This document shows positions 3,459 to 4,646 of a DNA stretch of 64,000 bases, piece by piece. A model generated the notes under the pieces. That model saw only the letters and a list, made by a program, of their open reading frames with translations, did no database searches and was not told the DNA's origin. This stretch comes from Escherichia coli (GTDB taxonomy: Bacteria; Pseudomonadota; Gammaproteobacteria; Enterobacterales; Enterobacteriaceae). The position numbers and the translations under genes are program-made. Within the stretch, counting starts at the first letter, position 1. The number at the start of each line of letters is the position of its first letter. The stretch is from NCBI RefSeq assembly GCF_003018115.1, contig NZ_CP027457.1; one strand, given 5' to 3'.

Positions 3459-4646
3459 ATGACGGTTAAAATTTCTGGTGTGCTGAAGGACGGGGCCGGT
3501 AAGCCGGTACCGGGATGCACGATAGAGCTGAAAGCGCGACGCACAACGGAGACGGTGATTGTCACCACGGTGGCGTATGGTCAGCCGGGGGAAACCGGCA
3601 GTTACAGTATGGATGTTGAGCCGGGTCTGTACCGGGTGACGCTGAACACGGAAGGGTACGCGCCGTCATATGTGGGTGACATTCTGGTGAAGGCGGAGTC
3701 TGCACCGGGAACGCTGAATAAATTTCTGATGGACCAGGAGGACGCACAGTATTACCCGAAAGCCCTTGCAGAGCTGGAAGCGGTGGCCGCGGAAATCCTG
3801 AAACGTGCGGAAGCGTCAGCGGCGAGTGCAGAGGAAGCGAAGAAACGGGCAGAGAATGCGCGGGGACCGAAGGGGGATAAGGGAGACACCGGGCCACAGG
3901 GTATTCCCGGGCCAAAAGGCGATACCGGCGAGCGTGGGCCAAAGGGTGAGCGTGGTGAGGCAGGCCCACAGGGGGTACAGGGGCCACGGGGTGAAACCGG
4001 ACCCGTGGGACCGCAAGGAGAGGCGGGTATTCAGGGGCCTGCTGGTCCTGCGGGCCCGCGAGGTGAAACCGGAGCCAGAGGCGAAAAAGTAGAGCCGGGA
4101 GATCCCGGAGGACCTCCGGGACCAAAAGGTGACACTGGCCCCAGAGGGGAGCCGGGGCCTCAGGGCCCGGCAGGTCCGAGGGGACCTGCCGGAGAGAGAG
4201 GGCCGCAAGGATTGCAGGGTGTGGCAGGGGAGAGAGGCGATACAGGTCCGGCTGGTCCACAGGGCGCTACCGGCCCCAGAGGACCACAAGGGGAAAAAGG
4301 GGATAAAGGTGACCCCGGCCCGGCAGGCCCTGCCGGTGAGCGGGGGCCGAAAGGTGATACCGGGCCGACGGGTCCCGCAGGGAAGGATGGCGCAGATTCA
4401 CAGGCGAACAGAGTGCGTATCAGCGAGAAAACAGAAGTCACCTCCAGTACAGTCGTTTTCCCCTCTTTTTATGGCGGTGCGCAGGGGGAAAATGCAGCCC
4501 CTAATGGCGCTGTGATTCTGAATATCAGGACGGCTCCGGTATCACTGACGAACGGCAATTTAGGGGCAGCCAGTGTCACTGCTGTCACTTACGGCTTCCT
4601 TCAGGTTCATGATGGCAGCCAGTGGGTTACGGTGAAACATGAATAA
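3459..4646 (+). CDS. Phage tail fibre protein with central collagen-like Gly-X-Y repeat
   Basis: N-terminus [17 protein letters not shown] typical of lambdoid tail fibres; roughly 180 aa of uninterrupted G-X-Y triplets; short C-terminal tip domain; followed by an assembly chaperone gene. Confidence 0.8.

Follow-up and report, generated by a model that had tools for sequence, protein, structure and literature searches.

A collagen-like side tail fibre gene in a lambdoid prophage of Escherichia coli and its series of in-frame length alleles

Results

In this study, a stretch of 64,000 nucleotides (nt) of Escherichia coli DNA (assembly GCF_003018115.1, contig NZ_CP027457.1), referred to here as the window, has been analysed around a tail fibre gene that carries a long collagen-like repeat. 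The longest open reading frame (ORF) spanning this repeat extends from 3459 to 4646 on the + strand and translates to 395 amino acids (aa). Very probably, its product is the side tail fibre of a lambdoid prophage inserted at ompW, the shaft of this fibre is collagen-like, the length alleles have arisen by microhomology deletion and the collagen-coding DNA acts as a crossover zone for modules. The proteins with which it is mainly compared are the EHEC (enterohaemorrhagic E. coli) prophage collagen-like proteins, or EPclPs, of Ghosh et al. 2012 (PMC3368898).

The fibre gene and its collagen-like tract

In the 395-aa frame, Pfam identified Collagen (PF01391, E=7e-28) and, in the same frame, the full model of PF08400, the N-terminal domain of prophage tail fibres (PfN), over aa 1-134 (E=9e-42; 8.7e-42 before rounding). 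Since both families match in this + frame, it represents a real gene and a chance reading frame is excluded. The Gly-X-Y runs were delimited by a script scoring glycine at each third residue, which gave two runs with one interruption (Table 1), amounting to 57 triplets, or 178 residues when the break is counted. The original prediction of a long Gly-X-Y repeat in a tail fibre gene, placed at 3861-4395 with about 180 residues and a single break, was therefore accurate, its limits lying within 3 nt of 3864-4397 and its break being the VEPGDPG segment. Over the 57 triplets, the X position is occupied by Pro (49%) and Asp/Glu (35%), and the Y position by Lys/Arg (35%), Ala (19%), Gln (18%), Thr (16%) and Pro (7%). 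Cys, Phe, His, Trp and Tyr are absent from both positions.

The break was found to have two components, a one-residue Gly insertion within the motif GDPGGPPG (aa 214-221, nt 4098-4121, + strand), which is an interruption of the G-X-P-G-G-P-X-G type, and a private Gly211Val substitution. Codon 211 reads GTA at 4089-4091 and GGA in all 14 other alleles compared. The collagen helix requires a glycine at this residue, which lies two triplets ahead of the conserved interruption, and its replacement stretches the non-helical break from 1 residue to 7. The exact window protein was not found in a collection of 15 billion proteins, and Gly211Val is therefore a private mutation or a sequencing error. 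The fibre protein is 99.7% identical to WP_106912520 in NZ_CP027462, the closest complete genome.

The assignment of the gene follows from its position and its N-terminus. The gene order is gpJ, Lom, fibre and a Tfa-like DUF4376 protein, and residues 1-91 of the fibre align with residues 1-91 of the side tail fibre (Stf) in PDB 9E7M. Because of the J-lom-fibre order and this collar match (E=2e-29), the gene is a lambda-type side tail fibre gene whose shaft has been replaced by collagen-like sequence, and the tail fibre identity proposed in the original prediction is upheld. The final ~30 residues in the N-terminal PfN domain were predicted as coiled coil by Ghosh et al. (PMC3368898).

The 82-aa C-terminal domain is presumed to be the trimerisation and distal tip module. 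It gave no Pfam match even at E<=10 and no PHROG match, and the PDB search of the fibre returned nothing apart from the collagen and collar parts. An exhaustive HMMER search of 1.84 billion representatives found two matches to this domain, a 59%-identical E. coli fibre fragment and one doubtful repeat protein, and a word-indexed search found it in only four clusters, all from E. coli. An AlphaFold2 model built from a five-sequence alignment was all-beta and of low confidence (mean predicted local distance difference test score, pLDDT, 57.8; predicted template modelling score, pTM, 0.38).

Table 1. Features of the fibre gene and its surroundings in the window, with the deletions that separate the length alleles
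Feature	Position	Strand	Details
Side tail fibre gene, EPclP-type	3459-4646	+	395 aa; phrog_366 tail fiber E=2e-113
Collar (StfN/PfN) domain, aa 1-91	3459-3731	+	phmmer, PDB 9E7M chain Ta (Ur-lambda Stf 1-91), E=2e-29
Linker and short Ala/Glu-rich helical segment, aa 92-135	3732-3863	+	end of PF08400
Collagen run 1, aa 136-210	3864-4088	+	25 Gly-X-Y triplets
Break VEPGDPG, aa 211-217	4089-4109	+	7 residues, between collagen runs 1 and 2
Collagen run 2, aa 218-313	4110-4397	+	32 Gly-X-Y triplets
C-terminal domain, aa 314-395	4398-4643	+	82 aa; without Pfam, PHROG or PDB match
Sole tandem-like stretch	4288-4309	+	9-nt unit x2.4, encodes GEK-GDK-GD
Junction of the window's 81-nt deletion	4254-4264	+	GGTCCACAGGG; alignment to 422-aa allele
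Direct repeat GGCCCGGCAGG	copy 1 4164-4174, copy 2 4317-4327	+	153 nt between lost in L007
Direct repeat AAAGGTGAC	copy 1 4125-4133, copy 2 4305-4313	+	180 nt between lost in L008
Direct repeat GGTGAAACCGGA pair	3990/4062		72 nt apart in window
81-nt deletion			repeat GGTCCACAGGG(T), 11-12 nt; window's 395-aa allele vs 422 aa
63-nt deletion			repeat GGGGAAAAAGG, 11 nt; 401-aa allele
234-nt deletion (153 nt relative to window)			repeat GGCCCGGCAGG, 11 nt; 344-aa allele L007
261-nt deletion (180 nt relative to window)			repeat AAAGGTGAC, 9 nt; 335-aa allele L008
246-nt deletion			repeat GGACC, 5 nt; 313-aa allele
Second, different 81-nt deletion			repeat GGTCC, 5 nt; L012, 395 aa
Tip attachment protein J, C-terminal 865 aa, truncated by window start	18-2615	+	Pfam Ig_J, Ig_J_second, Phage_Tail_Tip, Ig_GpJ_C; gpJ annotation in L001
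Lom/Ail outer-membrane protein	2645-3307	+	PF06316 E=3e-51; L001 annotation
DUF4376 protein, 223 aa	4715-5386	+	PF14301 E=7e-17, phrog_136 E=5e-37, phrog_11571 E=3e-144

Length alleles

A census of 5,426 complete E. coli genomes identified 56 that carry the full-length gene, which is 1269 nt (422 aa) long in 40 of them, 1188 nt (395 aa) in 15 and 1206 nt (401 aa) in 1. Three shorter alleles (344, 335 and 313 aa), with the same genes around them, came from draft genomes, each from one or two contigs. The resulting six lengths (422, 401, 395, 344, 335 and 313 aa) share their N- and C-termini, and all 15 alleles that were fetched have an intact ORF, conserved N- and C-terminal domains and few substitutions.

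When each allele was aligned to the longest one, every difference proved to be a clean deletion bordered by an exact direct repeat, with junction microhomologies of 12, 11, 11, 9, 5 and 5 nt (Table 1). Loss of the 246 nt takes away run 1 and, with it, the inserted glycine, so that a perfect Gly-X-Y register is restored. As a null count, 8,250 in-phase deletions of <=270 nt are possible in the 422-aa allele; 7 of them have at least 9 nt of microhomology, and 4 of these 7 are observed alleles. The other repeat pairs predicted in the 422-aa allele are spaced by 72, 162 and 216 nt. Since the pairs 4125/4305 and 4164/4317 are still intact in the window, the window itself predicts deletions that are already present in other strains. 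These results indicate that sequence is lost by deletion between a small number of rare 5-12-nt direct repeats and not by slippage of near-identical 9-nt units; the in-frame outcome is automatic because the repeats share the 9-nt phase.

The length of 395 aa has arisen at least twice. L012 (NZ_CP146507, strain 10) lacks nt 715-795 of the gene as numbered in the 422-aa allele, a segment beside the common 81-nt deletion, and as this allele reaches 395 aa by a different deletion, equal length does not mean equal allele. The flanking haplotypes that carry the common 81-nt deletion are divergent, and its junction comes in two variants, which reflects either recurrence or recombination. The sole expansion-like difference is one extra GDK triplet (9 nt) in L004, located at the tandem-like stretch 4288-4309. 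Thus, of the in-frame expansion and contraction suggested in the original prediction, contraction is borne out by the alleles from 422 to 313 aa, but expansion is not, apart from this one triplet. That prediction was to be given up if repeat length proved identical among related prophage fibres and no similarity to other collagen-like phage fibres was seen; neither situation was found, as the length is not constant (six alleles) and many such fibres exist.

Repeat structure of the DNA and shadow frames

When the tract is compared with itself, identity is 0.447 at lags divisible by 9 and 0.27-0.30 at every other lag, including those divisible by 3 but not by 9. The degenerate 9-bp/3-bp periodicity described earlier is thus confirmed in its 9-nt part, but a separate 3-nt part is absent from self-identity by lag. 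The G+C content of the tract is 68.7% vs 51.3% for the window. Tandem Repeats Finder, run on 3400-4700, reported no array apart from a 22-nt stretch at 4288-4309 with a 9-nt unit in 2.4 copies. Repeat families within the tract are 60-93% identical, and no exact direct repeat exceeds 12 nt; in codon-shuffled controls, with the Gly, X and Y codons permuted inside their own classes, the longest one averages 12.4 nt. A classical tandem-repeat or phase-variable (simple-sequence contingency) locus was considered and dropped, given the 2.4 copies and a longest repeat not above that of the shuffled controls.

The tract is also open in other frames, because its GGN/CCN-rich DNA is without stop codons. 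Shadow ORFs were found on the - strand at 3562-4260 (232 aa), 3816-4289 (157 aa) and 4160-4441 (93 aa, Pro/Gly-rich) and off frame on the + strand at 3805-4092 and 4129-4515. The Pro/Gly-rich opposite-strand ORFs anticipated from the letters of the sequence do exist, as the 93-aa frame illustrates. As genes, the shadow ORFs were rejected, since the + frame holds both Pfam domains plus all homologues. As these frames lack stops, frameshifts yield long aberrant tails and not early truncation. The database protein P0007 (378 aa) is a frameshifted fibre allele that reads into the + strand shadow frame 4129-4515.

Many public copies of the gene (P0003, P0008, P0123, P0124 and P0126) are "partial" proteins that end in or beside the collagen tract, on contigs of ~0.6-3 kb. 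The number of matching places per genome has a median of 2 and a maximum of 6. Short-read assemblies evidently break at the tract, and the probable reason is that several prophages per genome share PfN and collagen DNA.

Mosaic break points

Recombination between prophages had also been proposed for this repeat, and it is supported by break points at gene nt 444, 524 and 899, all inside collagen-coding DNA. At these points, DNA homology stops to ORF-401 of prophage P-EibA (444), to fibres containing Pf2 (524) and to fibres with a Gp53-like C-terminus (899). Moreover, gene nt 510-683 are ~84% identical to the collagen region of the fibres of podoviral Shiga-toxin (Stx) phages. Such mosaic break points are as expected if the collagen-coding DNA were a crossover zone for module exchange.

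Gene neighbourhood

The Lom coordinates in Table 1 are those of the longest ORF; the annotated start in relatives is ~40 nt downstream. The N-terminal half of the DUF4376 protein resembles tail fibre assembly proteins (phrog_136) and its C-terminal half is DUF4376. Its gene accompanies the 82-aa C-terminal domain wherever downstream sequence was present, and in L004 it also follows a fibre with another C-terminus. The protein may be a chaperone or a tip adhesin. The DUF4376 protein was compared with the "tail fiber adhesin" gp22 of Stx2-86, and no similarity between the two was found.

In NZ_CP027462, an ompW remnant borders the prophage at its right end, and beyond this remnant come yciE, yciF, yciG and the trp operon; in the window, the remnant lies at ~6809-6934 (coordinates transferred from L001). 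From this order, the prophage is integrated in ompW and the remainder of the window is core chromosome. In that remainder, a Trp leader was detected at 15244-15337 (-) and the small RNA STnc180 at 27772-27974 (+).

Near the prophage end, Rfam matches above the gathering score were obtained for C4 antisense RNA (61.6 bits) and isrK Hfq-binding RNA (60.4 bits), at 6404-6487 (-) and 6513-6589 (-), respectively. They adjoin a fragmented ORF6N/antirepressor-like gene at ~5794-6351, annotated in relatives as a frameshifted pseudogene. Together, C4, isrK and the antirepressor-like gene look like a c4/ant module similar to immI of P1. In L004 and L008, a Hok/Gef toxin gene occupies the slot that Lom has in the window, a further sign that the interval from J to stf is a cargo and mosaic hotspot.

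Discussion

The proposed model of the fibre is as follows. Three chains would make up one fibre, a trimer with a collagen triple helix, as judged from homology to EPclA. The collar (residues 1-91) would clamp the fibre to the junction of tail tube and tip, as solved for Ur-lambda Stf, and the short helical segment would come next. Residues 136-313 would then form a collagen triple helix of ~49 nm (171 residues x ~0.29 nm) with one kink at the GDPGGPPG register shift. The 82-residue C-terminal domain may cap this helix, probably nucleates the trimer, and may present the distal binding surface, alone or with the DUF4376/Tfa-like protein. The shaft would thus be a sequence-tolerant spacer encoded by G+C-rich DNA of 9-nt period. 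In this DNA, rare direct repeats of 5-12 nt that are in phase may drive microhomology deletions through replication slippage or RecA-independent recombination, each taking out a whole number of triplets and giving alleles from 313 to 422 aa, with the window allele being the 422-aa form minus 81 nt. Exchanges that link different distal modules to the conserved collar would also cross over within this low-divergence collagen-coding DNA.

With a collagen rise of ~0.29 nm per residue, the fibre would change in length between alleles, the shaft measuring ~49 nm in the window, against ~59 nm for the allele of 422 aa and ~28 nm for that of 313 aa. If lambda Stf is taken as a guide, the possible effect on host range named in the original prediction may come down to an altered adsorption rate (PMC12617516), and the precedents of the Guarani virophage and BclA make a functional effect of length plausible.

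The sequences show the domain identities, the synteny, the series of alleles with the microhomologies at their junctions, and the mosaic break points, whereas the trimer with its triple helix, the physical lengths, the part played by the C-terminal domain and any effect on adsorption are inferred. A few points weigh against the model. Gly211Val, at a helix-obligatory glycine, could destabilise the helix locally. The trimerising or receptor-binding role of the C-terminal domain is a guess, this domain having no recognisable relative and a poor AlphaFold2 model. Of the prophage, the window includes no more than the right end, and one neighbouring gene is a pseudogene in relatives. If the prophage is defective, as it may be, no fibre is ever made. 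Recombination, and not recurrence, could explain why the 81-nt deletion is spread over haplotypes. Some chance also persists that the short alleles of the draft genomes, each present on one or two contigs, are assembly artefacts; assembly collapse is unlikely because repeats of 5-12 nt are too short for it.

The possible defectiveness of the prophage leads to an explanation by neutral decay, in which the fibre is free from selection and the alleles are deletions accumulating in a deletion-prone sequence. The frameshift of the neighbouring ORF6N gene in relatives, the private Gly-to-Val change at an obligatory glycine, the frameshifted allele P0007 in the public data and the fact that deletions are the sole change observed are all compatible with it. 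However, all 15 fetched alleles have intact ORFs, conserved termini and few substitutions, and the DUF4376 gene downstream, itself intact, stays linked to the fibre gene. The deletion of 246 nt takes exactly the interruption and 27 triplets, with perfect register restored, and the family is abundant (5,571 matches at E<=1e-10). Neutral decay is accordingly a doubtful account of the allele series. Another view appears unlikely, namely that recurrent deletions vary the fibre length, that selection fits it to the thickness of O-antigen or capsule, and that host range or the efficiency of adsorption is thereby set by the number of repeats. The deletions are indeed recurrent, in-frame and register-preserving, 395 aa was reached through two different events, the number of triplets is wide-ranging across the family, and there are precedents in the 81-nt deletion of Guarani with host-range expansion (PMC7242381) and in the strain-specific triplets of BclA (PMC10470788). 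On the other hand, the DNA is without the near-identical tandem units that yield high switching rates, and the 56 complete genomes contain three lengths only, with one dominant. The in-frame outcome follows automatically from the 9-nt phase and hence is no evidence of selection; contractions alone were seen, so the process is not reversible; and the side fibres of lambda are dispensable and affect adsorption rate, not plating range (PMC12617516).

An extended form of this view, to which we give still less credit, is that of an evolvable ruler, where the retained in-phase repeats would shed blocks of 63, 81, 153, 180 and 246 nt so that a fibre of ~59 nm shrinking to ~28 nm fits the polysaccharide thickness, and where the orphan C-terminus would merely dock the DUF4376 protein as the real adhesin. 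It is scarcely credible that the gene instead encodes a bacterial surface collagen, an adhesin or immune-evasion factor of the lysogen comparable to Scl of streptococci or to BclA. Ghosh et al. did not dismiss this reading (PMC3368898), and Lom, a host-expressed prophage outer-membrane protein, is encoded next to the fibre. But no signal peptide or anchor is evident at the N-terminus, which is the Stf collar domain, the gene stands in the late tail operon between J/lom and the Tfa-like gene, and the signs that EPclPs are expressed are linked with induction of the phage (PMC3368898). A side tail fibre with a collagen shaft, shortened by microhomology deletions and recombined within its collagen-coding DNA, is thus the reading we prefer.

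Side tail fibres speed and direct the adsorption of lambdoid phages, Shiga-toxin phages included, and modular fibre exchange therefore affects the spread of virulence genes among E. coli. The present locus is a clean natural case of a collagen-coding sequence that is not tandemly repeated and yet gives a discrete series of in-frame length alleles, and its collagen-coding DNA doubles as a crossover zone for swaps of distal modules. The tract accounts for the fragmentation of short-read assemblies, for Pro/Gly-rich shadow ORF calls and for the strain-to-strain length mismatch of the "same" fibre gene. No new biological question is raised by the locus: a publication of 2012 had already described the family, with its triple helix and its length variation in whole triplets (PMC3368898).

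Comparison with known systems

Collagen-like rods occur in other systems. BclA of Bacillus anthracis is likewise a trimeric collagen-like rod with a small N-terminal anchor and a C-terminal trimerising domain. It differs in being a glycosylated spore protein with GXT-rich, near-identical repeats and no phage context, and its homology to the window fibre is confined to the Gly-X-Y tract (PDB 1WCK, E=3e-5). The number of BclA triplets is strain-specific (PMC10470788), and the title of a 2003 paper by Sylvestre cited there links this polymorphism to the length of the exosporium filaments. In case of the Guarani virophage, an 81-nt deletion in a collagen-like gene accompanies a host-range expansion or host switch (PMC7242381). 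Its ORF8 resembles the window fibre gene in having a spontaneous in-frame deletion within viral collagen-like repeats, coincidentally of 81 nt. Unlike the window fibre gene, ORF8 has true 27-nt tandem repeats, belongs to a eukaryotic virophage and has a deletion tied experimentally to the host switch.

The anchoring end of the fibre is best compared with lambda. In Ur-lambda, twelve copies of the N-terminal domain of Stf make a collar at the gpV/gpM junction, the collar bears four trimeric side fibres, and these bind OmpC and make adsorption 10-30 fold faster without being essential (PMC12617516). The window fibre has a homologous collar, occupies the same slot after J and lom and before tfa, and is presumably present as four trimeric fibres per virion. 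The shaft of lambda Stf consists of coiled-coil and gp37-like segments with an OmpC-binding end (PMC12617516), whereas the window fibre has a shaft of collagen and a far smaller, unrelated tip. Beyond the collar and collagen parts, searches of PDB, Pfam and PHROG detected no similarity to a lambda-type gp37-like distal shaft or OmpC-binding tip.

The closest agreement is with the EPclPs. Recombinant EPclA was found to be a trimer with a genuine collagen triple helix, melting at 42 C by circular dichroism (CD), as established by analytical ultracentrifugation (AUC), size-exclusion chromatography with multi-angle laser light scattering (SEC-MALLS) and CD, and to have the shape of a dumbbell with a hinged stalk (PMC3368898). 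The collagen domains of EPclPs differ from copy to copy by multiples of three residues, share the conserved interruption G-X-P-G-G-P-X-G, and are combined in modular architectures that suggest inter-prophage recombination (PMC3368898). Their published residue preferences are 48 for Pro and 36 for acidic residues in X, and 31, 21, 15, 20 and 7 for Lys/Arg, Ala, Gln, Thr and Pro in Y (PMC3368898). The percentages of the window fibre are nearly the same. The window fibre likewise lies in a prophage side-tail-fibre slot and has PF08400, PF01391 with such X/Y preferences and the GDPGGPPG motif; its alleles of 422, 401, 395, 344 and 335 aa are whole triplets apart, and the 313-aa allele loses 27 triplets plus the inserted Gly.

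The PCoil of the EPclA/EPclB type (~109-116 aa) is absent, as the collagen starts at aa 136 and PF08400 ends at aa 134. Pf2 (PF03406) is absent from the Pfam matches of the fibre, and so is PfC (PF06820), the 82-aa C-terminus having no Pfam match at E<=10. The C-termini of EPclC (ORF-401 of P-EibA) and EPclD (gp21 of Stx2-86) were tried with BLASTP and gave no significant C-terminal alignment. The window fibre is a member of the EPclP family and yet stands outside its four named architectures, with an orphan C-terminal module and neither PCoil nor Pf2. In the wider family (5,571 matches at the threshold given above), the window-type N-terminus is joined to tracts of 32-79 triplets in single-triplet steps.

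EPclA (ECs2717 and others of E. coli O157:H7 Sakai) has in common with the window fibre the PfN domain, a single collagen domain, the X/Y preferences, the tail-fibre slot and length alleles differing by whole triplets. It differs in its own 116-aa Ala/Ser-rich PCoil and in PfC (PF06820), both missing in the window fibre, and its collagen domain is shorter (63-144 aa vs 171 aa). The EPclC example, ORF-401 of P-EibA, shares PfN with 89% DNA identity over gene nt 1-444 and, like the window fibre, has no long PCoil, a G-X-P-G-G-P-X-G interruption and the J-lom-fibre order. In ORF-401, two collagen domains are split by Pf2 (PF03406) and followed by an unrelated C-terminus, whereas the window fibre is built with one interrupted collagen domain.

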